From IMG/VR virus record IMGVR_UViG_3300006899_000574: a DNA stretch of 64,000 bases; one strand, 5' to 3'. The translations under genes were made by a program, and so were the position numbers. The DNA comes from a virus (taxonomy: Duplodnaviria; Heunggongvirae; Uroviricota; Caudoviricetes). Positions 1 through 41,634 of the stretch are shown piece after piece (the first letter of the stretch is position 1; each line of letters starts with the position of its first letter). The notes under the pieces were generated by a model, which saw only the letters and a list, made by a program, of their open reading frames with translations, did no database searches and was not told the DNA's origin.

Positions 1-121
1 CCGCATGTTCGATGATCAATTCGCGCGTAACTTCGACTTCATCGCCGAATAACGTCTGAAATAATTTCAATTGGTCCTCACAGGCCTGGAGTTTTTGTAG
101 TTGTTCGTATGTGATTTTCAT
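1..121 (-). CDS. hypothetical protein, 3' end runs off the window (start ATG at 121-119 overlaps the upstream stop as ATGA)
   Basis: Hand translation of the minus strand gives MKITYEQLQKLQACEDQLKLFQTLFGDEVEVTREIIEHA...; translational coupling to the FliN-like ORF. Confidence 0.3.
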   Translation of the reverse strand, partial: MKITYEQLQKLQACEDQLKLFQTLFGDEVEVTRELIIEHA

Positions 122-489
122 TTCTGGCCCTGCGGAGATTTCCACACCATACTGAACGGCACGAGTTCGTAAATGCTCTGGTATTTAATGCGTTCGTCAG
201 GTGGAATAAGAGATGTAACCCTAACTCCGTAGTGGTCCCTGTCTGCCACGACTTCCCCCTGGGCATAGGGCATGCCGTTGAGTCGGATAAGAACTGGAGT
301 CCCTGCGGGTTGCTGTAGCATTACCAGAGATCCGTCTCCCAGAAGTTTGATTTGTTCCAGCGTGAGATCCGCTGTGCCCATCTCCACGGAGATACGGACC
401 GGCATGGCATTGAGTTGTGCGTCATTCATGGCACACAGCATGAGAAGAGACGCGGAGTTGTCAAGATTTTTCTGCGACACGTCAAGCAC
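118..489 (-). CDS. SpoA (surface presentation of antigens) domain protein, FliN / SctQ-C like
   Basis: C-terminal LTLEQIKLLGDGSLVML..PVLIRLNGMPYAQGEVVADRDHYGVRVTSLIPPDER matches the FliN/YscQ SpoA fold consensus; 123 aa. Confidence 0.65.
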   Translation of the reverse strand: MLDVSQKNLDNSASLLMLCAMNDAQLNAMPVRISVEMGTADLTLEQIKLLGDGSLVMLQQPAGTPVLIRLNGMPYAQGEVVADRDHYGVRVTSLIPPDERIKYQSIYELVPFSMVWKSPQGQK

Positions 490-652
490 GGATTCTCGTC
501 AGAACTGCGGCGCACTTCTCGGAGCACGTAAAGGTTGGACTGAGGTTTCCGCAGATCAGACACGCCCAGGGCTGGGGTCTGGTATAGGCGCGGCGGATTG
601 GATACAGGAGTCTCTTTTTGATAGGCGACTTTCTATGTCTTCAAGAAGGACG

Positions 653-1183
653 TCAAGAAAAATCTGGGAGCACGGCTCGAACGTGCCTACGATAGGCCCT
701 GCCATGTCCTCTATTCCTACCTTTGTAAGTAGACGTCAAACTATGACAATTTGGACATAAGAGGGTCAGATTGTCCTCCACATTATTTAAGTGGTTCCCA
801 TCTATATGGTCTATCTCCAGTGGAATTTTCTGTGTATATGGATTCCTTTCGGACCACCCACATCGGGAACATTTCGCATGATACTTCTCAAATAGATACC
901 TACGTATCATGGACGATACTTGAGAAGCGGTATCTGGTGCCCGGAGGCCTGTCTCATGTCCTGAGTGCCATTTACGTATATACTCGGAATATTGGTGATC
1001 AGCCTGACATTTGTTGGAGCAAAATTTAGGGTTAGCTGTGACACTGAGACACGTCGGGCAAGTTGTGGAAAATGATTTCCTTCGGGTCGGAACTTGATTG
1101 TTTACAGTGGCCGCACAAGAGTGGGAACAATAAAGTCTTTGCTTTTTGGTAAGCGCTTTGGTACAGCATTTGCACGTTGCCAT
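653..1183 (-). CDS. HNH homing endonuclease
   Basis: EIDHIDGNHLNNVEDNLTLLCPNCHSL HNH motif with flanking Cys pairs (zinc-binding). Confidence 0.75.
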   Translation of the reverse strand: MATCKCCTKALTKKQRLYCSHSCAATVNNQVPTRRKSFSTTCPTCLSVTANPKFCSNKCQADHQYSEYIRKWHSGHETGLRAPDTASQVSSMIRRYLFEKYHAKCSRCGWSERNPYTQKIPLEIDHIDGNHLNNVEDNLTLLCPNCHSLTSTYKGRNRGHGRAYRRHVRAVLPDFS

Positions 1184-1234
1184 CCTACGTTAGGAGATGA
1201 TGGGTTAGAGGAGACTACGATAAGGTAGCGTCTG

Positions 1235-1267
1235 AAAACAAAAAAGGCCGGGGTTTCAGTCCCGGCC
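1235..1267 (-). terminator. rho-independent terminator (minus strand)
   Basis: GGCCGGG-gtttcagt-CCCGGCC hairpin preceded on the plus strand by an A-run (a T-run on the minus strand). Confidence 0.55.
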
Positions 1268-1373
1268 TTCCAGAAGATCAAGTGCAGATCGCTCTACATT
1301 GCTTCTCCGGGAAGGCGTGCGGTATCCTCGGCATTCGCCGTATTCTGGAACTGAGCAGTGCGGTCCCGGTGCA

Positions 1374-3226: not shown

Positions 3227-3693
3227 CTTCTGCCTTCGTGCTGGTCCAGCACCTGCCTGGCAAGGTCTCGCTGTTCCTCGCAATAGGCGATGTAGGATTG
3301 CAAAACGTCAGACGTGATGGGCGTGAGGCTTTTCATCTTCACATCGAGACGCTCTACCCCGGACTCGCGCAGAGCGCAGAAGGCTCCAATGCGTGAGTGC
3401 AGGACCATGACGTTATGTTGTTTTTGCAAGTCGTCGCGGTTGAGTTCGGAGTTGTAATCGTATATCTGTTTTTTGACCTGGTTCCAGATCGCACGAAGTG
3501 TCCAGTGTTTTGTGAGGTCGATTTTCACATAAATGCTACCGCACAGCGGTTCGTGATCCATGTTGGTTGCGCCGCTCCACAGAACAGCGGTCTTCTCCCG
3601 CTTGCTGATCTTGAACCCCATCCAGCGCAGGATGAGTGTTATCTCCTCTTGAGACGTGCGGCCGGCTATCTTGATAAGCTGTTTCATTGTCAT
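3223..3693 (-). CDS. hypothetical protein (start at MTMKQ, ATGA overlap with the AAA gene stop)
   Basis: ORF plus coupling geometry. Confidence 0.4.
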   Translation of the reverse strand: MTMKQLIKIAGRTSQEEITLILRWMGFKISKREKTAVLWSGATNMDHEPLCGSIYVKIDLTKHWTLRAIWNQVKKQIYDYNSELNRDDLQKQHNVMVLHSRIGAFCALRESGVERLDVKMKSLTPITSDVLQSYIAYCEEQRDLARQVLDQHEGRR

Positions 3694-5009
3694 GTCTTGA
3701 TTTTCTCCCACAGCAGTTGTTGCGCCACGTCTCGACACATCTCCTGGAACTCCGCCCCCGACATCCCTTCGCCTTTACTGATAAGATCCTCAAACCAGGT
3801 CTGATGCTCGTCTCCAAGAATTTTCCTTACGATAACCATGCGACCTTCGCGAGACGGAAGAGGGAAGTCGAGCACACGATCAATGCGGCCCGGACGTATC
3901 AAGGCGGGGTCGATGGCAGACTCGTCATTCGTTGTCATCATGGTCAGCACTCCATGCCGTGCTCGGGCTCCATCCAGCACATTCAGCAGGCAGTCGAATG
4001 TAATGGGATTCAGGTCTCCACGGGCCTGCGTATTGACCCTGCCATGGAAGATGTTATCGATGTCTTCAAAAACTGCTACGATTGTCTGGTCTGATGTATA
4101 ACGCTCCCATAGCAAGACCAGATCCGCATTTGTCATAGAACCTAAATCAAATACGATGAGAGGCAACTGCAATGTCTGAGCCAGTGCCCGAATGAAACTT
4201 GTCTTGCCATTCCCGGGTGCGCCCTTCAATAGAAAACCGCGCTTCCAGGGGATGTCGCGAGCCGCATACCAGTCACGGTGGGCGAACCAGAATTTCACTT
4301 CCTCGATCGCCGTTCGCATATCATCTGTCATCGCCAGACTGCACTCAATGGTAAGTCGGTTCTGATCTGCTGGCTGAACGTCCTCGCGGCGATAAGTTAC
4401 AGGAAACAATGTGTTTCCATCGGCGGTAGTGTCTTCCGGTTCTTGGGAGTCAGGCGATTTTGAACCTTTAGTAGAAGGGGAGTTAGCACGTCCTAGCGGA
4501 ACGTTCAGATTCCCGCCTCCAAGACTACCTGTGACTGTGCGTGTCGTGAACCGGCTGATAGCCATATCAGCACTGTCCAGATCCTCCTGAATCTCCCGGA
4601 GCATGCGATGCACGCCAAATCTCAGGGGTCGAAAATAGTACAGACGCGTATGCCCATAATCTCCGTCCGCCAACACGGAAAAAATCCAGGGCGCGCGCCG
4701 AGACAGATGTAACACCGGTAAGTACGTGGTTCTTAGATGATACAAGAATGCACTCACCAGTTTCTGCGTGGGCTTGTAAAACACGCGCCTGGTAAAAACT
4801 CTTGGAGGACTCAAGGAGAATCGGTAGGACGTCGCGCAGAGATACCGGAGAATAGCATTTGCGTCTCCTGAAACCTGCATCTCGGCGATGACAATTGCTA
4901 CTACTTTGCCTGCCCACAGGAGCATCTTCTCCCTGGCGGCGACCATCACAGTCAGTATGCCTCCAAGCCCCGCAGTTGCGGCGAGCGTTGAAAAATCAAT
5001 CGGTCCCAT
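3690..5009 (-). CDS. AAA+ ATPase with N-terminal transmembrane segments (BCS1-like architecture)
   Basis: Walker A GAPGNGKTS, Walker B VFEDID, second region of homology PALIRPGRIDR; hydrophobic N-terminus. Confidence 0.8.
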   Translation of the reverse strand: MGPIDFSTLAATAGLGGILTVMVAAREKMLLWAGKVVAIVIAEMQVSGDANAILRYLCATSYRFSLSPPRVFTRRVFYKPTQKLVSAFLYHLRTTYLPVLHLSRRAPWIFSVLADGDYGHTRLYYFRPLRFGVHRMLREIQEDLDSADMAISRFTTRTVTGSLGGGNLNVPLGRANSPSTKGSKSPDSQEPEDTTADGNTLFPVTYRREDVQPADQNRLTIECSLAMTDDMRTAIEEVKFWFAHRDWYAARDIPWKRGFLLKGAPGNGKTSFIRALAQTLQLPLIVFDLGSMTNADLVLLWERYTSDQTIVAVFEDIDNIFHGRVNTQARGDLNPITFDCLLNVLDGARARHGVLTMMTTNDESAIDPALIRPGRIDRVLDFPLPSREGRMVIVRKILGDEHQTWFEDLISKGEGMSGAEFQEMCRDVAQQLLWEKIKT

Positions 5010-5226: not shown

Positions 5227-5492
5227 GACTCGCGCTGGGTTCCAGCGTCAGCGCAATCCTGGTGCGTACGGAATTTTGCCACACCCAGGCATACCATTGC
5301 CCGTTCTCCAGCCAGATGATCTTCTGGACCCCCGGCTGATCCCAGGCCGCCCTTACGGAATCCGGAAGTGATACGCGGTGTCCACATCCGCCGCAAAACT
5401 GCGTAGCCCCGCTCCTGCCAGACCAGCGAGAGCTTCTCGTAGGTCTCAAGTCTGGCTTCTTGTTGTTGAATAAAGAACGGTGAAAGGCTCAT
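5223..5492 (-). CDS. hypothetical protein (start at MSLSPFF, ATGA overlap with the ThyX stop)
   Basis: ORF plus coupling. Confidence 0.35.
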   Translation of the reverse strand: MSLSPFFIQQQEARLETYEKLSLVWQERGYAVLRRMWTPRITSGFRKGGLGSAGGPEDHLAGERAMVCLGVAKFRTHQDCADAGTQRES

Positions 5493-7393
5493 GATTTTTT
5501 CTCCAGAATCTTCCTGAATTGTACTACCCCAGCAGGTAGATTGCCTGACATCCATGGGTCAAGAACAATTTTCTTGTCAACTCCCCAGTCGCTACGCGGG
5601 GCCAGCCAGAACGCCAGGTCGGGATGCATGACCTGCATTTCAGCCGGTGAGTTCCCTGACACACAAGTTTTTCCATTTCTACGAACAATGAGTAACCCAG
5701 TCGAAACTGTGGCACAGTAGACCTCTCCTGTATATTTGATCTTAGAGAAGTTCTTACGTAGATGTCTGGAGTCGTTGAGGATCGACGAGGGCCTACGGCA
5801 CAGATTTAAGGAGAACACGGGTTGGGACTTGTGTGAACGTCGGTGTCGGTTCCCTTGTCGTAACGAAAAATTGTATCCATGTAGTGCCCCCAAGGTTTGG
5901 ATCTGATCTGCTAGTTTCGGACTAGTAGTCGCATACGTCCAAGTGTGCCTTTTGATGCTTCCGTCGGAATTTTTCAAGCCGTCCATCAGTGCGTGAACAA
6001 ACTCTGGAGAAGACTCATATATCCCATCAGGGAGACATTTTTGCCGATTGATATCATATAGCAAAGTATGGAATTCCTTAGCGAGACCGTCTCTCGCAAC
6101 CCAATAGGTGTTGTAATGCGGTTTTTCTACTAACTCAAAATTCAGGGTCTTACATATTGCGCGCAGATACGCAATTTTGCGAGGTTTCTTCAAATGGAAA
6201 GTTAACCTGCGGCCTCCGTGTTGCCCTATATCACGGGGGACACTCCCATCTCCAAGAAAAAATCCAACCAGTTTACCGAACTGGGGGTCGTCCTCGCTCC
6301 ACATCAAACAGTCTACATAGTTTGCTTTGGACGTAAGCGCGCAGTTGAGCATTTTTAAAGGAGAGGCCACGACTACTTCAAAAGGCGATTTTGCTACCCT
6401 TTCATTTGCAGGCCTGAGAGAGAAAACCTGACTCCCCCAAGGTTTTGAGGCATAGATCTGATGAGAGGGAGTGATCATCAAATTAAACCGGTGCGAAACT
6501 ATATGATACATCTCTTCATTGATCAGGCTATAGGACAGGAGTTGAGCTGGCCGTTCGAACCCCTGAAATTTTGAATCCCGAGGGTCCACGGTAGCTAAAC
6601 TATCATTTGTCTGAACGTTAGGCCACTTGATGAACCCTCTAGTTGTAAGCACCTCTGTCTCCGCGTCATAACAGGCGTGGATCGGCTGACTGCCGACGAG
6701 CTTCTGGTAGGTCCAGAGGTCATCTGCTATGGTGCTGGGCTTGTTGTTGCGCAGATACGAAACCCTCGCACAGCGTGCCACTGATGTCCGGATGTCTTGC
6801 AGGATCTCCGGTACGTTCTTTTCTACATACAATCTGTACGCATGCGTACGGCGGTCATCCACGTAGGGCAGGTGGATTTCGCGACGTGTCGGCGTGCTTA
6901 CGGCGAACGCATCGGCCATCTTCCGGGCCAATATCTGCATGTCGTGCTGGGCATCGCCATGGAGTCTGAGGTTGAAGAAGTTCTGTAACCCCGGAAGGCC
7001 AGTCGTCATTACAACTCTGACGTAGAGAAAGGGCTCCAGGAGCCTGTTGCAGATTTCCTTGTGGACCCCGAGTGCGTGCAGACATCCGGCGAACATCTTC
7101 GCACAACGCATGGCGGCTTTCCATGTCAGCCTGGCGACGGCATCCCGCCAGCCCGTCATATCAGCCCGAGGTTGCATGCCGGGGCCATTGACGGGGAACT
7201 CCGCCGGCACGTAGCAACAGCTCAATAGCAGAGTCTTGTGTGGCACTGCACGAGATGACGCCGCCGAGCGCGAGAACGTTCTGTGCGTATTGAGTTGCGC
7301 CAATAGGAAGCGCGGGAAGCACAGCTCGAACGTCAGAACGCGGACGCCATTGATGCTGGAGTCCAGGATGAGCTTTGCAGACGTCACGTTCAT
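5489..7393 (-). CDS. thyX: flavin-dependent thymidylate synthase ThyX, interrupted by an intein
   Basis: N-extein FELCFPRFLLAQLNTHRTFSRSAASSRA and NFFNLRLHGDAQHD align to the ThyX core (T. maritima [29 protein letters not shown] / NFLNLRADSHAQWE); the intein is described in the next feature. Confidence 0.6.
   Translation of the reverse strand: MNVTSAKLILDSSINGVRVLTFELCFPRFLLAQLNTHRTFSRSAASSRAVPHKTLLLSCCYVPAEFPVNGPGMQPRADMTGWRDAVARLTWKAAMRCAKMFAGCLHALGVHKEICNRLLEPFLYVRVVMTTGLPGLQNFFNLRLHGDAQHDMQILARKMADAFAVSTPTRREIHLPYVDDRRTHAYRLYVEKNVPEILQDIRTSVARCARVSYLRNNKPSTIADDLWTYQKLVGSQPIHACYDAETEVLTTRGFIKWPNVQTNDSLATVDPRDSKFQGFERPAQLLSYSLINEEMYHIVSHRFNLMITPSHQIYASKPWGSQVFSLRPANERVAKSPFEVVVASPLKMLNCALTSKANYVDCLMWSEDDPQFGKLVGFFLGDGSVPRDIGQHGGRRLTFHLKKPRKIAYLRAICKTLNFELVEKPHYNTYWVARDGLAKEFHTLLYDINRQKCLPDGIYESSPEFVHALMDGLKNSDGSIKRHTWTYATTSPKLADQIQTLGALHGYNFSLRQGNRHRRSHKSQPVFSLNLCRRPSSILNDSRHLRKNFSKIKYTGEVYCATVSTGLLIVRRNGKTCVSGNSPAEMQVMHPDLAFWLAPRSDWGVDKKIVLDPWMSGNLPAGVVQFRKILEKKS
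5651..6673 (-). mobile_element. intein with LAGLIDADG homing endonuclease inside thyX (about residues 241-581)
   Basis: Block A CYDAETEVLTTRG, block B TPSH, two LAGLIDADG motifs (LVGFFLGDGSV, HALMDGLKNSDGSI), block F/G VYCATVSTGLLIVRRNGKTCVSGN followed by Ser. Confidence 0.55.
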
Positions 7394-8464: not shown

Positions 8465-9346
8465 TTACTCCTCGATGACATGCTTGCCGTAGAGCGCAAT
8501 CAAAATCTCCCACCACTTGCGCTTCCACAACGGAAGCCTTTCGCCCACGTGTGTGGCGATCTCTTTGATCTCTCTGGCAGAGAAGAGGTAGAAAACGGTC
8601 GTAGGTTGTTGCACGGGCTCCGAGTGCTCTTGCAGGATGAGTCTCCAGGGATGTATACCGGACTCCACCAGGCCCCGGTATGGCCCTCCTGTGATTACCA
8701 GTTGTCGGAACGTGCGGTGAGCGGGCGGTGGATCTATTTTGACAGGCTGGACTTCCACCCAGGCGTGAGCAAGCAGTTGCGTCGGGTAACTCGTGCGAAC
8801 AATGCGTAATACGTTTTCCGCAGTCACATTACCTTCGGGGGTGACTTTTGATACCGACTCCTGGTGATACTTGCGCTGGTTTTCCAGCAGGGTTTGTGCA
8901 ATGCGCTGTCTTTCGGCTTGACGCTCTGCGCGCCTGCGCTCCTCGTCCTGCCGACGTTCTGCGGACATCGGGACAACAGTGCCCTGGCGTGAGAGCAGGT
9001 GGAAATCCGGTAGTCCGAAACCAAAATTGCCGTCGTTATCCAACTCGACGAATTGATCATCGACGGAAGTCGCAAAGTTTCCGATAAACTCGGGTGTGAT
9101 ATCCGAGTGCTGGAGGGACTCCGTTGGCCAGTAATAGTAGAAACCTCCGATCTCGAATTCAATTTCTTCGGCTGTCTCCGCAGAGGTATCCCAGTGGACA
9201 CTGACCTCGTGGTCTTTGACTGTACGCAGACACAAGCCGTCGCTGTCAATATTGAAAGCCACTCCATTGATCACGCCGGCGTTAATACTGCCGCGCTTGA
9301 TGGCGCCAAAGATGCGCTTACTCGGGTAGTTGATGTCGTCTGGCAT
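8465..9346 (-). CDS. hypothetical protein
   Basis: 293-aa ORF. Confidence 0.5.
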   Translation of the reverse strand: MPDDINYPSKRIFGAIKRGSINAGVINGVAFNIDSDGLCLRTVKDHEVSVHWDTSAETAEEIEFEIGGFYYYWPTESLQHSDITPEFIGNFATSVDDQFVELDNDGNFGFGLPDFHLLSRQGTVVPMSAERRQDEERRRAERQAERQRIAQTLLENQRKYHQESVSKVTPEGNVTAENVLRIVRTSYPTQLLAHAWVEVQPVKIDPPPAHRTFRQLVITGGPYRGLVESGIHPWRLILQEHSEPVQQPTTVFYLFSAREIKEIATHVGERLPLWKRKWWEILIALYGKHVIEE

Positions 9347-9401
9347 GTCGTCCTCCGGGCGAGCGAGGCTTCAGCGTTTCCCGAAGCCCCACTCTGTGTT
9401 C

Positions 9402-10214
9402 TTACTTAATACCGATGAACGGCAGAGGCGCTTGTTCTCCGAGATAAATAGGCATGACACCGTTCCATTTCTTGATGGCTTCCGCCTGATTCATGACGCG
9501 CAGATACTCCAGAGTCTGGCCTCCGGAGCTTTGAGTGCGAAGCCTGTTGGCTTCTGACTCTCCTCGTGCGCGTGCAATGTTGGCTTCTGCTTCTGCCTTG
9601 GCGGCCTCGGCATTTTGTTGCGCCTTCATCTTGTTGTTGAGCGCTTCTTGAACTTCTTCGGGCGCCTGAATGCGGCCGAGGATCGTGACGTTCTCGACGT
9701 CAAACCCCTCAGCAGAGACGGCTTCTTTCACCATACGGTTCACGCGTGCGATGAATTCAGTCTTCTTGGGACCATTGATTTCATCGTATGCCATCGTGGA
9801 GGCCGCTTGATTGAACTTGTCCTGTACGATGTTTCGTAGATAGACATTGGTGATGAAGTCCATGCCGTTGCGGTGACGCTGGAAAATAGCAGATACAGAT
9901 TCCTTTCTGATTGAATACGATACGCCCACATCAACCTTCAGGCTCAAGCCGTTGAAGTCGTTGAAACGAATGGCCTCGTCTCCTGGGTTGCCGTCACTAC
10001 TGTCTGCTGACCATCGCACGGTTTGCACGAAGATCGGAAACGTGTAGAGTTCTGTATTCCAGCTCGGCCAGTAGCGCCCCACACCAAGAACCTCCTGGTC
10101 CACTCCTTTATCACCTCCCAGCTTGTTGACTCTGATGCCAACGTACCCGGGCTCCACGTAATTGCAAGCCGACAGCATGACTGCTGTCATCAGCAATAGA
10201 ATTGATTTTCTCAT
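9402..10214 (-). CDS. SPFH / band-7 family lipoprotein (HflC/prohibitin-like)
   Basis: Lipoprotein signal MRKSILLLMTAVMLSAC; SPFH core followed by an Ala/Glu-rich coiled coil (KMKAQQNAEAAKAEAEANIARARGESEANR). Confidence 0.7.
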   Translation of the reverse strand: MRKSILLLMTAVMLSACNYVEPGYVGIRVNKLGGDKGVDQEVLGVGRYWPSWNTELYTFPIFVQTVRWSADSSDGNPGDEAIRFNDFNGLSLKVDVGVSYSIRKESVSAIFQRHRNGMDFITNVYLRNIVQDKFNQAASTMAYDEINGPKKTEFIARVNRMVKEAVSAEGFDVENVTILGRIQAPEEVQEALNNKMKAQQNAEAAKAEAEANIARARGESEANRLRTQSSGGQTLEYLRVMNQAEAIKKWNGVMPIYLGEQAPLPFIGIK

Positions 10215-10465
10215 TTTGAATCCTCCTCTGGTTTCAGAAATTTGTTATAGATCCAGTAACCCGCCCCCACTGCCCCGAGGATCAGTAGCAGTGCTGGCCA
10301 GACGAACGACAGCACGCTTAACGCCACGGAGCCGATAACCAGTCCGCCGCCTAACTCCACGGCGTCAATCTTCTTCCGGTCGTAAAGACGGAGAAGCAGG
10401 ACAGTGCCGCCTGCAATGGTGGACACTCCGGTTATGATCGCTCCCATCAGCCACCACCAGGGCAT
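10211..10465 (-). CDS. small integral membrane protein (start taken at internal MPWWW)
   Basis: Two to three hydrophobic helices; ATGA coupling. Confidence 0.4.
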   Translation of the reverse strand: MPWWWLMGAIITGVSTIAGGTVLLLRLYDRKKIDAVELGGGLVIGSVALSVLSFVWPALLLILGAVGAGYWIYNKFLKPEEDSK

Positions 10466-10650
10466 CAGGGGCTCTCCCGAAAGAATTTCCGCACTCGGCC
10501 TGCGATCCACGCAATCGCGAGGTAAACCAGAACGATAATAATTCCGGCTCCCGCAACCACAAATTCCGTCTGCTGAGAAGATATGAGTTCGGGCAGGACC
10601 AGGCCCACCAGTATCAGGAGCCCGATTGTCAGTAACAAAATTTTATGCAT
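10465..10650 (-). CDS. small membrane protein
   Basis: 61 aa with two hydrophobic helices. Confidence 0.4.
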   Translation of the reverse strand: MHKILLLTIGLLILVGLVLPELISSQQTEFVVAGAGIIIVLVYLAIAWIAGRVRKFFRESP

Positions 10651-11206
10651 GTGACACCTCCTCTTGGGAGCCGGCGGCCAGTCTGCGGCTCGCGAGTTCC
10701 TGCATTTCTTCCGGTGTTAATTTCGTAACCGGGTGTTCTGCGGCAAACTTCTTGATGGCTTGCGCTAGGTGCCTGCCCTTGGACTTTGCACTCAGCATCT
10801 CCTGGTAATGCTCGTTTGAAACGTTGCTGTATCGATAGACGTGTCCGGAGCGGAATTCCACAAACAGTGTGTTGGCTTCGTGGGCGATGGCCCTGATGTT
10901 GCTGGACTGTACTTCTGTGAATTGAATCATTTGTCCAAACCTCTTTTTTTCTCTTTTTTTCATCCACCAGTCAAAAGCTCTTGCAGGCGGAAAAAATTGG
11001 CGACGCACTACCAGCTTGAGCAGAATAACGGGCAGTATGAGAAACCAGATCAAAGCGAGCATTACATTCTGCTCGTAGTCAATACCACCTCCGTCTCGTC
11101 GCCACCAATCGTAATTTTGGAGATCCAGATAGCAGATCACCCAGTAACCCAGAGTGTAACCTGCCGCATAGATGACGACGATGATAGCGACAACAAGCGC
11201 AGTCAT
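10643..11206 (-). CDS. membrane protein with C-terminal KTSC domain
   Basis: VQSSNIRAIAHEANTLFVEFRSGHVYRYSNVSNEHYQEMLSAKSKGRHLAQAIK fits the KTSC consensus; the N-terminus is hydrophobic. Confidence 0.6.
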   Translation of the reverse strand: MTALVVAIIVVIYAAGYTLGYWVICYLDLQNYDWWRRDGGGIDYEQNVMLALIWFLILPVILLKLVVRRQFFPPARAFDWWMKKREKKRFGQMIQFTEVQSSNIRAIAHEANTLFVEFRSGHVYRYSNVSNEHYQEMLSAKSKGRHLAQAIKKFAAEHPVTKLTPEEMQELASRRLAAGSQEEVSHA

Positions 11207-11466
11207 CACGGCTCCACCACGCACACAATGCTCGTGGCTTCGAAGATATAGAAATTCTTGCCCTCGACTGTGATCGTCGCCATCCTGGCGCCGCGTGCCC
11301 ACATCACTCTGTCTCCAACCGCGATGCCTTCCACTTCTTGCCCTACCGAGACCACGGTAGCAACCCGGGTTTCGTCGGGCTGTAACTCCACGATTCCCGA
11401 TGCCCGTGTGTGTTCGGTCTTTACTTCATCCAGTTCCAGGATGACTCTCTTACCCAGTGCTTGCAT
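11206..11466 (-). CDS. GroES-like co-chaperonin (Cpn10 / T4 gp31-like)
   Basis: 86 aa; the pattern LGKRVILELDEV...ASGIVEL...ATVVSVG...VGDRVMW mirrors the GroES beta-barrel layout. Confidence 0.5.
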   Translation of the reverse strand: MQALGKRVILELDEVKTEHTRASGIVELQPDETRVATVVSVGQEVEGIAVGDRVMWARGARMATITVEGKNFYIFEATSIVCVVEP

Positions 11467-16734: not shown

Positions 16735-17052
16735 ATGACAGAGACCCTCCGCGCATCCGTGGATCTGCACTACAAATCCCGGCTCACGGCCAGAGAGCAG
16801 AAAGTCTTTCGACTTACCCGCGAAGGAAAGCTCCAGGCTGGGAAGCTCACCAGCTACATCTCGCGAAAAAGCACATGGCGCGACGGACAGGACTTCACTT
16901 TTCGGGTTCTCTGGGGCACAAGTAAGGCCGCCTGTCAGGAAGGCTATCTTCAATCGTGCATCGACGAATTCTCCTGGAGATTTTCAAATCGAAAAAACGA
17001 GAATATTTTCCACGATTACATGAAGCGGACGGTGCTTGTTAAAACAGCGTAA
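16735..17052 (+). mobile_element. IS1595-family (ISXO2-like) transposase C-terminal tail remnant, copy 1
   Basis: YLQSCIDEFSWRFSNRKNENIFHDYMKRT matches the IS1595 Tnp C-terminus (Y.dEFxFRxNxR). Confidence 0.5.
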
Positions 17053-17056
17053 GAAA

Positions 17057-17611
17057 CTATCTAAATTCATCAATTCCGATGGGTATTGCTTTTGAAGAAT
17101 GGACACGAACTTGATTTATGCGACCGTAAGTATCTTCTACTTTTGGATGCACAGGCAAATCGCTTCGTCCGCCAAATCTGTTCCTATCATTCTTCCTGTA
17201 ATGCTCCCAATCTGGGCCATCGTCTGGTTGTAGATCGCTTTTTCTTGCTTTGAAAACAAGAAATACAGGATCACGCCCAGCGTGAGCTAAGTATGTTCCA
17301 AGACCATTCTTAGAACCAAGAAAAATAAACTGCCCAAGTGGATTCTTCCACACAGATTTTTCTGTTGCAACATCTCTATTCCAGCCAGAATCCAAAATTG
17401 CCTGAGCGTTCTCTCTGCTTGTCGCATGGTATAGAGCTACATAATTATCATCTGGAATGCTGGCTAATCGTTTCCAGTTTCCATTTGGATCGATTGCACC
17501 GTCAATGATGTAGTACCTACCAAAATCATCGTGTTTTTCAATTCGAGAAAAATTTGCTTCATACAGCGATCCGCCGCTCTCATAAAGCCTTTGCAATTCT
17601 ACCAGACGCAT
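17057..17611 (-). CDS. putative H-Y-E class ADP-ribosyltransferase fold protein (PARP/Tpt1-KptA/DarT-like); cargo 1
   Basis: VALYHATSRENAQAILDSGW resembles the HG(S/T)...IL..G NAD-binding motif of PARP/Tpt1/DarT; N-terminus MRLVELQRLYESGGSLYE is shared with the ORF at 18583-18957. Confidence 0.45.
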   Translation of the reverse strand: MRLVELQRLYESGGSLYEANFSRIEKHDDFGRYYIIDGAIDPNGNWKRLASIPDDNYVALYHATSRENAQAILDSGWNRDVATEKSVWKNPLGQFIFLGSKNGLGTYLAHAGRDPVFLVFKARKSDLQPDDGPDWEHYRKNDRNRFGGRSDLPVHPKVEDTYGRINQVRVHSSKAIPIGIDEFR

Positions 17612-17681
17612 ACCTGTATCTTTAGTGATCTGAGGCGATTCTAATGCGTCATAAGCCTGTGTACACTGAGGGATAATTCCG
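17612..17681 (-). promoter_or_regulatory. conserved upstream region of cargo gene 1, including a candidate sigma70-like promoter (TGTACA-16-TAGAAT) and the GGGATAATTCCG motif
   Basis: About 85% DNA identity to the region upstream of cargo gene 2. Confidence 0.3.
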
Positions 17682-17682
17682 T

Positions 17683-17707
17683 AAAAAAAAGGCGGAGGTT
17701 ATCCGCC
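17683..17707 (-). terminator. rho-independent terminator
   Basis: GGCGGA-ggtta-TCCGCC hairpin with an A8 run on the plus strand (T8 on the minus strand). Confidence 0.5.
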
Positions 17708-18419: not shown

Positions 18420-18572
18420 ATGAAGCGTGGGATTATCGGCTCGTATCACCACATCAGCCCGAAGTACCTGCAAGCATACATCGACGAATTTTCCTGGAGG
18501 TTCAGCAATCGGAAGAACGAGAACATCTTTCACGATTTTATGAAGCGAACTTTGCTGGCTACTGCGGCGTGA
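18420..18572 (+). mobile_element. IS1595-family transposase C-terminal tail remnant, copy 2 (50 aa)
   Basis: MKRGIIGSYHHISPKYLQAYIDEFSWRFSNRKNENIFHDFMKRT is the canonical IS1595 Tnp tail. Confidence 0.55.
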
Positions 18573-18957: not shown

Positions 18958-19039
18958 GTCCTTTGTATCTTTAGTAAACAGGCAGGCGATCCAGTTCGAT
19001 CAGACGACATAACTGGATGTACTCTGCGGGATAATTCCG
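18958..19039 (-). promoter_or_regulatory. conserved upstream region of cargo gene 2 with the GGGATAATTCCG motif
   Basis: Duplicate of 17612-17681. Confidence 0.3.
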
Positions 19040-19072
19040 AAAAAAAATCCCCCGGCTGTGACCCCGGGGGAT
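19040..19072 (-). terminator. rho-independent terminator downstream of the capsid gene
   Basis: TCCCCCGG-ctgtga-CCGGGGGA hairpin with an A8 run on the plus strand. Confidence 0.55.
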
Positions 19073-38062: not shown

Positions 38063-40285
38063 TCAGGAGTCCAGACTGGGGTCCGGAGACAGGGTATCCG
38101 GAGGGATGGTGGGTTCCCCCTCCCCTCTGGCCGCGTATGTCTCACGGTATTGCTGGTCCCGGGCTTCGCGGTTCTCCCTTAGTTTGCGGTCCCTGGCCTC
38201 TTTGGCCTCTCTGAGCTTGGCGCTACGCTTCTTCAGGACGTCGATATACTCACGCTTGCCGTCTTCCAGGGGATTCTCAACCTCTTGGCCGAACATCCAC
38301 ATATCGCGTTTGTGCGCGGCCAGGCGGTGCTCTTCAGTCAGCCTGGCGATGCGCTCATCCTTGAACTGCCACAGCATTTTGGGATCGAAGCCCCCCACGG
38401 GTTTGTTGCGCGAGGAATAGAAGTGCCGGCCGCCTATACTGCCCTCAGACATCACGCGGTTCTTGGCTTTGAAAACTTCTTCACTCACGGCTTCGTTCAA
38501 GATCACGGGGTCAACGGTCTCGAAGAACTTGCGGATCTGTTTCTGCGTCGGCCTTCTGCTTCTGGTGCTCTCCTGCGCTTCGCCGCCGAGTCCCAGCGCT
38601 CCGGCTTCTTCCGGCGGCTGTTCGCCTTCAGGAGCTGGAGTTTCTCCAGGTGGCGGGGCTTCTGCGCCGCCCGCAGGTGCAGGGCCTCCGCCGCCTCCGC
38701 CTCCCAGGGGTTCGCTTTGTGGCGCCGGAGCGCCGCCTGCGGCCGGCTGGTCACCGAGATCAATGCGGGACACCAGAGCGGAGTTCATCCAGCGCTTGAT
38801 GGTGTCGCCGTCCCATGGCAGGATCTTGGTAAGCACCTGCCGCACGAGATCCGGAGGAAGCAAGGCATTGGGGTCGCCAACAATACGCTGGCCAACCATA
38901 TCAAAGATTTTGTTGCTGAGGTCCAACAGGTCACCCTGCGCGCCGATCATGTCGCGGTCAATCTGTGACTCGGGGTACGGCATCGTCAGCTGGAATTCAA
39001 TTTCTTCTTCCTTGAATTTGCCGCTGAGGATGAGATGAATCTTGTCCATCTGCGAAATGCCTTCGAGAAGGATTTGCTGGACTCTGTAGACGCGTCTTCC
39101 GAATGGCCGGAACTGTTGTGCCAGAGCGTATCCCGAATTTCCGAAGCTTCCTTTGTTGGCATCGAGGAAACTGCGTGGCAAGCCCGTAGCCATGTCGAGT
39201 CCGTCCAGCAGGGCCTCGATGTCATCCATTCTGCCGAGGTCGATGTCAGGCGTCTCCTGCGTGTAGTCGTAGAGGCCTTTGATTGTAACAACGTGTTCTC
39301 CTACTCCGGGCTCTTCTTTTCTGCTGTCCAGCATACCTGACTGCTGAAGAAGATTCACGAACCTCACGGCATGCGCTAGTTTGTCGCTGGGCGGCACATT
39401 GGGGAGATCAATTTCGTGCTTGAAGATTGGAAACCTGGCGGATCTCGCGGCTACCTGAAGCGTCATCGCGGCGTCGTATTGACGATAGGGAGCGATGGCG
39501 TGCAGAAACATCGGCTGACCGAAGGGCGCAAAGGGGCTGTTGTTGATGAGATTGCGGAAATGAATGAACTTCCATGGCGGCAGAATGAAGTCTCCTACCT
39601 GGAATCCGAACAGGTAGGTTTCGAGATATGTCTCGACATTCGTGGTCTTCAGCACGTTGTCAATCAGCATCTTCATCTTCTGTGAGTTCGTCATGCGATA
39701 GATGTTGGATTTCGTGTCTTTGATCTTCTGCCTCAAATGATGAGCGCTGAACTCAATGCGGTCCACGAGATCGAAGATATTGATGGGGATGATCTTGGAG
39801 ACTCCGGTGTCGTTGGTCCCCAGCACCCAGCCGTGATTTCCGTACTTGACAATACTATCTGCGGCATCGGGGATGTGCTGTTCGAGGCCGATGTTGTCGT
39901 GGTGCTCCAGAAGAAAGTCTCTTACTCTTGGACTTGCGTCTACGCCGATGGTCTTGAAATTCGCATCAGCCTGATAGGATTCATCTCTGGTGATGTCAAT
40001 CCCGCGCGACAGGATCGGACTGTTGAGATAGATCATGTCGATGTCGCTGTACAGCAGTTCGCGGTTCTCGAAACTCGCGGCGTCGTCATGACAGCTGTTC
40101 ATCCAGTAGTCATAGAACTTCTGTGTCTGTGGCGGCAGGTCGAAAAACGTAGTATGGCCAACATTGTTGCCGTCAGTCGTCTTCTGCGTGGGGCGCAGTT
40201 CGTTGCGGCTCTTGTCCAGCCCGAGGTTGAAAAACTTGAAAATGCGGTTCAGGATTGTACGCTTATTTTCAACAGAGGCCATTGA
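38063..40285 (-). CDS. large hypothetical virion protein (portal candidate) with Gly/Pro-rich linker
   Basis: About 740 aa from MASVENK; low-complexity GGGGGGPAPAGGAEAPPPG; charged C-terminus. Confidence 0.45.
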   Translation of the reverse strand, partial: SMASVENKRTILNRIFKFFNLGLDKSRNELRPTQKTTDGNNVGHTTFFDLPPQTQKFYDYWMNSCHDDAASFENRELLYSDIDMIYLNSPILSRGIDITRDESYQADANFKTIGVDASPRVRDFLLEHHDNIGLEQHIPDAADSIVKYGNHGWVLGTNDTGVSKIIPINIFDLVDRIEFSAHHLRQKIKDTKSNIYRMTNSQKMKMLIDNVLKTTNVETYLETYLFGFQVGDFILPPWKFIHFRNLINNSPFAPFGQPMFLHAIAPYRQYDAAMTLQVAARSARFPIFKHEIDLPNVPPSDKLAHAVRFVNLLQQSGMLDSRKEEPGVGEHVVTIKGLYDYTQETPDIDLGRMDDIEALLDGLDMATGLPRSFLDANKGSFGNSGYALAQQFRPFGRRVYRVQQILLEGISQMDKIHLILSGKFKEEEIEFQLTMPYPESQIDRDMIGAQGDLLDLSNKIFDMVGQRIVGDPNALLPPDLVRQVLTKILPWDGDTIKRWMNSALVSRIDLGDQPAAGGAPAPQSEPLGGGGGGGPAPAGGAEAPPPGETPAPEGEQPPEEAGALGLGGEAQESTRSRRPTQKQIRKFFETVDPVILNEAVSEEVFKAKNRVMSEGSIGGRHFYSSRNKPVGGFDPKMLWQFKDERIARLTEEHRLAAHKRDMWMFGQEVENPLEDGKREYIDVLKKRSAKLREAKEARDRKLRENREARDQQYRETYAARGEGEPTIPPDTLSPDPSLDS

Positions 40286-40314
40286 GGTCTTAGTGAGGCC
40301 TCCGGGAATCACGA

Positions 40315-41634
40315 CTAGACGAGGTCTTGCTGTATTTTTGCGAGCGTCCGGGTGCCGGTGTTGATTTTCATGCCACTTCGCACGAGTTCCATCTGCGTCA
40401 TCAGCAGACGCTGGTCTCCGGTGAAGACATGCCGGCTCGCGCCGATCAGCCATTTGCCGGCGTACATGGAGTGCTTTCCGGAGGGCCCTTTGATGTCGAT
40501 TTCCATCGTGCGGCCCGCAACAGCTTCCTGGTTGAAATGCACGACTGCCCGCAGACGGTGCGCGGTGAGCGCCGACAGGTGCCGGCTCGCCATCCAGCCT
40601 TCGTAGTTCTTCTGGTGGTTCTTGTTGTCCAGGACGCCATAGGTCTCGATGTTTCTGAGGAGCCCGAGATCGGTGTTGCGCACCATGTAGGTGCGATCGC
40701 TGGTGCCGATTTCCCGGGGCTGAACCGTGGGCGCCACGTAGGATGTCTTCGGAGTGGCCTCGACCAGCTCATAACCGCCATCCGGCCGCAGGGCGTAGAA
40801 TTGCGACCGATACACGCTTTCGCCAAAGGGAACGCCGGCGTGAACCACACCGTATTCCTGGATCTGTGAGGTGTCGAGTTGTCGGTCAGGCGTGATGCTC
40901 ATCTTGTAGCGCAGTTGCGGCATGACCTTCTGGCTCTCCAGATTCTTCAACGAATCAAAGTAGAACTCTCCCCGAAGATTTATGAATGTCAGGTAGGGGC
41001 TGTTGTTGGAGTTCACGGCGATATCTGCATGTCTGGCGAGAAATTCGAAATCGAATTCGTTGCACTGATACCAGAGATCGGAGTTCAGGATGCCCCCGGG
41101 ATTACCCAGGCCGTCAATCTGTACTTTGGAGAAATCGTAGTCAGAAACGATGGTGTTGATGACGGTCTTCAATGGTGTGCCGAGAGCCGACGCACTGCTG
41201 TAGCCAAAACTTCGACTATGGCCGCCATCTAGCTTGCGGTAGCGCGACAGCAGTGTCCACAGCTGAGATCCGGAGATGTGATCGGAAGCCACGGTATCGA
41301 GAATCTCTGAAGTCGCCCAGTAGAAGTCGTGGCTGATGCTCTGGTTGTAGCGCAGTTTGCCGAACATCACGCCGAGATTCAGAGACTCGATGAACGGCCA
41401 GTTCTCTGCCAGCTCGCCGGTGGCGTCCCGCAGAAGCAGGGTGCCGTGCGGAAACGGGAAGCCATCGGCCCTGTAGATGCTGTCGGAGAACGACGCCTCG
41501 GTAAAAAGACCTGCCTCTCCATCATTGAAGAAGAAGTAGTCGGGGTCGTCGATAAATCCAAACCGCGCGCCGGTGCCTATGCGTAGCGTTGCGCCCTGCG
41601 CGTTGAGCTGTGTCTTGGGAGTGTTGACGGGCAC
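40315..41634 (-). CDS. hypothetical structural protein
   Basis: 439 aa. Confidence 0.5.
   Translation of the reverse strand: MPVNTPKTQLNAQGATLRIGTGARFGFIDDPDYFFFNDGEAGLFTEASFSDSIYRADGFPFPHGTLLLRDATGELAENWPFIESLNLGVMFGKLRYNQSISHDFYWATSEILDTVASDHISGSQLWTLLSRYRKLDGGHSRSFGYSSASALGTPLKTVINTIVSDYDFSKVQIDGLGNPGGILNSDLWYQCNEFDFEFLARHADIAVNSNNSPYLTFINLRGEFYFDSLKNLESQKVMPQLRYKMSITPDRQLDTSQIQEYGVVHAGVPFGESVYRSQFYALRPDGGYELVEATPKTSYVAPTVQPREIGTSDRTYMVRNTDLGLLRNIETYGVLDNKNHQKNYEGWMASRHLSALTAHRLRAVVHFNQEAVAGRTMEIDIKGPSGKHSMYAGKWLIGASRHVFTGDQRLLMTQMELVRSGMKINTGTRTLAKIQQDLV

Follow-up and report, generated by a model that had tools for sequence, protein, structure and literature searches.

We analysed a stretch of 64,000 nucleotides, here called the window, from IMG/VR virus record IMGVR_UViG_3300006899_000574 (Caudoviricetes). 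Near its left end lies a gene (118-489, minus strand) that encodes a homologue of FliN, the SpoA-domain protein of the flagellar C-ring. The original prediction had placed a SpoA-domain gene at this site, coupled to a downstream gene that leaves the window and accompanied by an HNH endonuclease gene and a strong terminator. It had left two readings, either host DNA flanking an integrated prophage or a phage that itself carries a C-ring component. Each of these features was recovered, the terminator (then given as 1235-1267) as a hairpin and T-run at 1242-1271, and the second of the two readings is the one that the results below bear out. The features of the locus are as follows.

2..121, minus strand: first 40 codons (MKITYEQLQKLQACEDQLKLFQTLFGDEVEVTRELIIEHA...) of the downstream gene, which runs off the window edge.
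118-489, minus strand: FliN-like SpoA-domain gene (Pfam FliMN_C), GTG start, 123 amino acids (aa); the SpoA domain covers about residues 25-95 and a subfamily-specific C-terminal tail residues 96-123, with YELVPFSMVWK at 107-117.
490..652, minus strand: spacer between the HNH and SpoA genes, the presumed location of the ribosome-binding site, and perhaps of a promoter, of the SpoA gene.
653..1183, minus strand: free-standing HNH homing-endonuclease gene, 176 aa, of low GC content.
1242..1271, minus strand: intrinsic-terminator-like hairpin and T-run, with an 11-pair stem (7 G-C), a loop of 8 and the tail TTGTTTTCAG.

The product of 118-489 is a SpoA/FliN homologue. It matched Pfam family PF01052 (SpoA/FliMN_C) over 71 of the 73 model positions with 65.3 bits (E 4.8e-18), the gathering cut-off being 23.8 bits, and is a member of that family by score. 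A phmmer search of the Protein Data Bank (PDB) placed Salmonella FliN on top (E 5.6e-15, about 41% identity, residues 20-102) and recovered Thermotoga maritima FliN likewise, while the YscQ-C structure 3UEP gave a weaker match (2e-4). Among curated models the protein is nearest to FliN, with SctQ further off; against TIGR02551 (SctQ) it scored 44.6 bits (E 1.7e-11), below the cut-off of 100.8. A match to FliY was confined to the last 74 of 376 model positions, and no CheC Pfam match was found in the protein. When an AlphaFold2 model was submitted to Foldseek, the top 15 matches were FliN chains, followed by FliM and FliY and then by SctQ-type proteins. In the PDB alignment M37, A62, V80 and A82 of the phage protein stand opposite L68, A93, V111 and V113 of FliN, residues that we take to form the FliH-binding patch. 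The protein had no match in PHROG or PADLOC.

A single SpoA domain and a similar size (123 aa as compared with 137 aa for the Salmonella chain in the PDB) are common to the phage protein and bacterial FliN (PF01052, TIGR02480). In the phage protein, by contrast, about 28 further residues form a conserved tail (VPFSMVWK), the long N-terminus of enterobacterial FliN is missing, and the coding gene is that of a phage with no flagellar operon around it. The SpoA fold is also shared with SctQ, YscQ, SpaO and Spa33 of the injectisome sorting platform. However, SctQ has two SpoA domains in about 300 aa and comes from type III secretion system (T3SS) clusters, whereas 118-489 encodes one domain and has no T3SS context.

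The 118-489 gene is a phage gene, not host DNA. Of the 79 non-overlapping open reading frames (ORFs) of the window, 75 lie tightly packed on the minus strand, the SpoA and HNH genes among them, and the 1242-1271 hairpin is on the same strand. Phage-type genes include a Portal_T4-like protein (38066-40453), a T5 A1-like DNA-transfer protein (phrog_1745, 1e-94), a phosphoesterase (phrog_547, 5.5e-46), a tail protein, an SbcC-like nuclease subunit, a sliding clamp, a DHH phosphoesterase, ThyX and several HNH genes. A Pfam census of the 79 ORFs (E<=1e-6) found only 13 families, with FliMN_C the sole flagellar one; neither an integrase nor a second flagellar, chemotaxis or T3SS family was present among these ORFs. 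No GenBank phage has a protein more than 31% identical to the A1-like one, and a search of GenBank phages with the portal gave nothing at 1e-10; the window phage is accordingly judged to be a novel tailed phage. An identical SpoA protein (P0001, with V at the start) and an identical HNH protein (P0003) are encoded on a 75,336-bp JGI contig, and the same protein is on two other contigs. When IMG/VR, JGI metagenomes and GTDB genomes were scanned with peptides nothing was returned, viral and metagenome contigs had no exact match to 49-nt stretches of the DNA, and a scan of IMG/VR with the AAA-ATPase found no close relative of the window phage.

Wider searches placed the protein in a small group. 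A phmmer search of 1.84 billion representative proteins yielded 6002 SpoA matches, of which the best (P0005, P0006, P0007), together with P0033, P0042 and P0049, are short proteins that align with the window protein through its C-terminal extension. Of 241 SpoA proteins examined, 7 carry the tail motif [VIL]P[YF]xx[VILMK] some 20 residues past the SpoA core, and each of these 7 is from this group; in the window protein it lies in YELVPFSMVWK at residues 107-117. An alignment of all 8 members is highly divergent, too much so for use in a scan of the locus. The short N-terminus and the conserved tail motif (VPYxxhK) thus mark out what we regard as a rare, phage-borne subfamily; the group and its gene cassettes were recognised in this analysis and do not correspond to a described family. 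Two candidate members were set aside on their genomic context: P0155, a lone 213-aa SpoA protein beside RNase_T and GerE genes, and P0027, which adjoins FliO.

The relatives are encoded on contigs of which several carry further C-ring genes. Their contents are as follows, with the FliN-like protein named first.

L002 (6 kb), P0007: followed by a FliG_N+FliG_M protein (72 and 49 bits) and a FliM protein (103 bits), with a baseplate-like neighbour (phrog_975, 5e-8).
L003 (4.2 kb), P0042: followed by a 101-aa FliG_M protein (26.6 bits, cut-off 25) and a 321-aa FliM protein, among ORFs without known relatives (ORFans).
L004 (1.9 kb), P0005: followed by a FliG_M protein and by a gene aligning with the FliM-like proteins that is cut by the contig end, among small ORFs without Pfam matches.
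L012, P0033: followed by an unrelated small gene, among small ORFs without Pfam matches.
L014, P0049: followed by unrelated small genes, among small ORFs without Pfam matches.

In L002, L003 and L004 the order is the same, with the FliN-like gene leading, the FliG-like gene second and the FliM-like gene third. The Pfam assignments in these cassettes, FliG_M on all three contigs, FliG_N on L002 and FliM on L002 and L003, are above the gathering cut-offs, and the third gene of L004 is likened to the FliM-like proteins by an alignment made here, with no Pfam match on record. All of the FliM-like proteins begin with M(A/S)E(V/I/M)L(S/N)QDE(I/V)D(A/S)LL, a peptide of the LSQDEIDALL type, which in bacterial FliM binds phosphorylated CheY (CheY-P). 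The FliG-like proteins lack the FliF-binding N domain or the torque-generating, stator-facing C domain, and the FliM-binding middle domain is always kept. None of the cassette proteins matched PHROG or PADLOC. No FliM-like gene with the LSQDEIDALL peptide was met in the 64-kb window.

A pattern scan of IMG/VR for FliM-like proteins brought up one viral fragment (L011, IMGVR_UViG_3300027904_000443, 39 kb). Positions 9300-11272 of this fragment encode a 234-aa FliG_M+FliG_C protein, with no N domain, and a 423-aa FliM::SpoA (FliM::FliN) fusion, which scored 265.6 bits against the NCBIfam FliM equivalog model with its cut-off of 219.6. These switch genes adjoin a gene for a portal-like protein that is 29% identical to the window's portal over 565 aa, and lie beside genes for a phosphoesterase (33% identical to that of the window), a Dam-type methylase and a cytidyltransferase. 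As judged from these shared proteins, L011 is distantly related to the window phage and has all three switch proteins.

The nearest relative of the window's locus is L001, a 2.1-kb Logan contig whose SpoA protein is 84% identical to that of the window. Identity at the DNA level falls in steps. Window positions 824-465, which hold the 3' end of the HNH gene, the spacer and the first SpoA codons, are 100% identical to L001 1-360. Within the SpoA gene identity is 90-95% at 464-305 and 48-70% at 304-185, and stands at 87% in the C-terminal tail (184-145); beyond 145, at the end of the SpoA gene and in the downstream gene, no identity was found. We interpret this stepwise decay away from the HNH gene as the probable trace of a co-conversion tract left by homing. 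On the plus strand, 272-760 holds an antisense ORF with 100% conservation in L001; we do not count it as a gene, because the fully identical DNA at 465-824 accounts for this conservation.

Codons 1-63 of the two SpoA genes give a ratio of nonsynonymous to synonymous substitution rates (dN/dS) of 0.02. For codons 64-118, in which dS has reached saturation at about 2.2, the ratio is 0.11. The tail motif is identical in both although synonymous sites are saturated in the 3' part of the gene. Because of these low ratios, the comparison indicates strong purifying selection on the SpoA gene. After its SpoA gene L001 has different small genes and then, 1.2 kb downstream of it, a gene for an RtcB RNA ligase (1962-2141). 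The ORF directly after the SpoA gene of L001 (706-954, 82 aa) contains 'ICELLAVESPQVQAV', a stretch of 20 residues with a likeness to the EHPQ region of FliG_M; it scored 13.5 bits against a FliG_M hidden Markov model (HMM) built here, had no Pfam match, and may at best be a remnant of a decayed FliG_M gene.

Background on bacterial C-rings suggests how such a protein could act. SpoA domains form intertwined homo- and heterodimers, as in the FliM C-terminal domain with FliN (PDB 4YXB), and FliN docks FliH (4YXC). FliN also exchanges in working motors (PMC4161238). Because of this dimerisation, exchange and docking, a role as decoy or poison subunit against the host C-ring or the docking of flagellar export appears most likely for the window protein. 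In the proposed mechanism the FliN-like protein would be made during infection and would pair, SpoA domain to SpoA domain, with the C-terminal domain of host FliM or with host FliN at the base of the C-ring, where subunits exchange, or would occupy their partner FliH instead. As a decoy or poison subunit it would then stall or re-bias the motor, or block flagellar export. The phage might gain in that proton-motive force is saved, or in that other flagellum-dependent phages and its own progeny are kept off infected cells. Where cassettes are present, their products might form or join switch-complex-like assemblies that act on the host motor or on chemotaxis output.

Our view, held with moderate confidence, is that 118-489 is a selected gene of a novel tailed phage, belongs to a rare FliN-like subfamily, and supplies a decoy or poison subunit against the host C-ring or flagellar export. 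A more far-reaching version, which we put forward tentatively and would not call probable, is that a phage lineage encodes a minimal soluble switch complex (the FliG middle domain, FliM with the CheY-P peptide, and the tailed FliN) as a host-takeover module which soaks up CheY-P or inserts into the C-ring and poisons it, so that the motor and flagellar export are locked or shut down, the window gene being its FliN-only form.

Several observations weigh against the decoy or poison proposal. The mechanism is inferred from sequence, and a flagellated host is an assumption. The protein scored 56.3 bits against NCBIfam TIGR02480, the fliN equivalog_domain model, which has a cut-off of 84.05. Its AlphaFold2 model is of moderate confidence, with a mean predicted local distance difference test (pLDDT) score of 66.2, values of 72-85 in the core and less than 50 in the tail, and the 'VVVV' of FliN reads 'VVAD' in the phage protein, so that binding surfaces may have changed. 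A group profile gave members 133-158 bits and ordinary FliN no more than 99 bits, but the members themselves had gone into the profile, which makes this gap partly circular. The contigs that encode most of the relatives measure 1-6 kb, and it is from ORFans and a few neighbours of phage type that their viral origin is inferred. The cassette is not universal, as the genes downstream of the FliN-like gene on L012 and L014 are unrelated to FliG, and within the 64-kb window HMMs made from the cassette proteins found no FliG- or FliM-like ORF.

The alternative that the original prediction had raised, that positions 1-1270 are bacterial chromosome beside a prophage and the SpoA gene is a host FliN or SctQ, draws on the composition of this segment. 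Its GC content of 0.486 falls in the lowest 3% of 1270-bp segments, its tetranucleotide distance ranks 4th of 99, a terminator follows at 1242-1271, and the sequence left of position 1 is outside the window. However, the low GC of 1-1270 arises because the HNH gene is GC-poor (GC 0.451 and 0.42 at third codon positions (GC3), as compared with a window mean GC of 0.538), and that gene is a homing endonuclease of phage type. The SpoA gene is ordinary, with a GC of 0.526 (36th percentile) and a GC3 of 0.585, the other phage genes having GC3 values of 0.555-0.717. The HNH gene and the terminator had been proposed to set the SpoA gene apart from the phage block; both are co-oriented with both of their neighbours, all features of the segment share the phage strand, and the SpoA gene overlaps the next gene. 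A FliN-type cluster, with fliM upstream and fliO/P/Q/R downstream, was not found, since the upstream gene is the HNH gene and the 40 aa visible downstream match no flagellar gene, fliO and fliP included. None of the 20 largest of 57 direct-repeat families has a copy in 1-1300, and no att-like repeat was seen in the window, outside which the right-hand att site would lie; no integrase family was found among the 79 ORFs. Scans of 185,579 species-representative (GTDB) genomes found no close relative of the SpoA protein, which also falls below the FliN and SctQ equivalog cut-offs; the surroundings of its nearest relatives are ORFans, an RtcB gene, baseplate-like genes and a portal gene, and several of these relatives belong to FliN-FliG-FliM cassettes. 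We therefore regard the host-flank explanation as largely refuted, and the chance that it is correct as very small.

The phage-borne gene could have been re-purposed, with the SpoA fold serving as a dimerisation scaffold in a non-flagellar phage process, or it could be the last piece of a decayed cassette. There is no FliG or FliM partner in 64 kb, the protein scores below the FliN equivalog cut-off, the subfamily-specific tail has no known partner, the 82-aa ORF of L001 looks like a FliG_M remnant (20 residues, 13.5 bits, no Pfam match), and L012 and L014 are without the cassette. Decay is argued against by the dN/dS of 0.02-0.11 and by a tail kept across saturated synonymous sites. Where partners are present they are the two FliN-binding switch proteins, and the FliM-like ones keep the CheY-P peptide, which together argue for a role of the family directed at the flagellum or chemotaxis; a re-purposed or remnant gene is accordingly rated as unlikely, if still deserving of some weight. 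Alternatively, the gene could be a supportive auxiliary one whose extra FliN keeps the host motor and export running during infection. Surveys that report viral flagellar auxiliary metabolic genes (AMGs) suggest a benefit to host motility (PMC8290583; PMC13079714), and FliN turns over in working motors (PMC4161238). An identity of about 41% at most to cellular FliN, combined with the failure to reach the equivalog cut-off, makes a drop-in replacement unlikely, and FliG-like proteins that lack the N or C domain fit decoys better than working parts. Lytic-type phages, moreover, rarely profit from the sustained motility of a doomed cell. We consider a supportive role improbable, more so than a re-purposed or remnant gene, and retain the decoy or poison subunit as the preferred explanation.

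To our knowledge, the proteins of the flagellar C-ring have been counted as components of the motor and its export gate that occur in cells only. A selected phage gene of FliN type, together with the truncated switch proteins of its relatives, would imply that some phages target the motor from its cytoplasmic side. If so, this would be a new kind of host-takeover function and a new class of phage weapon against the flagellar motor, and it could explain exclusion among flagellum-dependent phages. Such proteins would also offer natural inhibitors, or dominant-negative switch proteins, for studies of C-ring assembly, subunit exchange and CheY-P signalling. For annotation, the locus illustrates that a FliN match at a contig edge is no evidence of host DNA.

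No reliable counterpart of the FliN-like gene was found in GenBank phage records. Three kinds of candidate were rejected. In the record of 'Microcystis phage MaAM05' (MW495066.1, L005; 274 kb) the 100-120 kb region looks like bacterial DNA; murJ, bioD, glyS, fabI, mtgA, pomA and fliM are annotated there, and the deposit is probably chimeric or wrongly assigned. The 'phage' records from Listeria and Salmonella with FliM or FliN matches are short unannotated fragments, presumably of host flagellar DNA, and MT835480 is an unverified, unannotated scaffold. In the literature, motA and motB were reported on a viral operational taxonomic unit from glacier ice, D25_22_20338 (PMC8290583), and 'rotary motor' AMGs in a metagenome survey (PMC13079714). 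As here, these surveys place motor genes on viral contigs and their functional proposals are speculative; they concern stator genes or unspecified KEGG matches, whereas our analysis concerns a FliN subfamily and FliN-FliG-FliM cassettes. The collection that we searched, which was not exhaustive, held viral flagellar genes only at survey level and neither a phage FliN subfamily nor a FliN-FliG-FliM cassette. The phage C-ring pattern, which is wider than the window gene, appears to be undescribed.

The gene downstream of 118-489 is translationally coupled to it, as the SpoA stop codon overlaps its ATG (ATGA at 121-118). The 40-aa N-terminus within the window had no Pfam match and only weak PHROG matches (E 0.05). 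By eye its '...RELIIEHA' recalls the '...LL.gEHPQ' of FliG_M; this likeness was rejected as unsupported when the 40 visible residues scored -0.8 bits against an HMM of FliG_M made from phage proteins and the FliG_M of E. coli and T. maritima. No protein sharing words with these 40 aa was found in a database of 5.8 billion proteins, and because the sequence running off the edge has no counterpart there, window position 1 would seem to be the end of the contig. A consensus scan of the spacer at 490..652 found no sigma-70-like site.

The HNH assignment of 653-1183 is based on Pfam PF01844 (1e-05, 26 bits, gathering cut-off 21.4), phrog_1271 (HNH endonuclease, 1.1e-23) and the PADLOC homing endonuclease (HEase) model (8.4e-16). 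By blastn the gene is 75% identical over 85 bp to an HNH gene of the 110-kb Escherichia phage vB_EcoS_HZ_ZJUN2 (PP216084). In its similarity to phrog_1271, its intergenic position and its low GC it resembles the free-standing HNH homing endonucleases of T5-like and other large phages. It is flanked by a tract of perfect identity to a related contig (L001) that decays with distance. It is probably a mobile insertion, a conclusion drawn here from composition and the identity gradient only. A terminator scan of the window returned 3 sites as compared with 2.6 expected in shuffled sequences and was not significant as a whole; the 1242-1271 hairpin is by far the strongest of these sites and stands between two genes, immediately upstream of where the HNH gene starts. 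It would stop transcription from the upstream genes (1374-1643 and beyond) before the HNH gene, and is an ordinary terminator between co-oriented genes.

Other parts of the window contain additional features. The 634-aa ThyX gene (5489-7393, minus strand; Pfam Thy1, 8e-14) holds a putative intein with an endonuclease of LAGLIDADG type, read by eye from 'HACYDAETEVLT...' and 'FFLGDGS...' ahead of the resumed ThyX sequence. In the early region, 3690-5009 (minus strand) encodes a 439-aa AAA+ ATPase with matches to PADLOC IetA models (1.1e-17), phrog_7485 and phrog_3757, which may have a defence-like or counter-defence role. Two pairs of direct repeats, 16945-17050 with 18465-18570 (75%) and 17647-17689 with 19005-19047 (79%), lie around two ORFs where the GC content of the window is lowest (ORF 17057-17611, GC 0.418); regulatory modules in more than one copy, or an insertion that was duplicated or is mobile, could account for them. 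The Pfam census of the phage also included a peptide deformylase, SPFH/Band_7, a SpoIIE-type PP2C phosphatase, KTSC and cREC_REC (a cyclic-phosphate-processing receiver).

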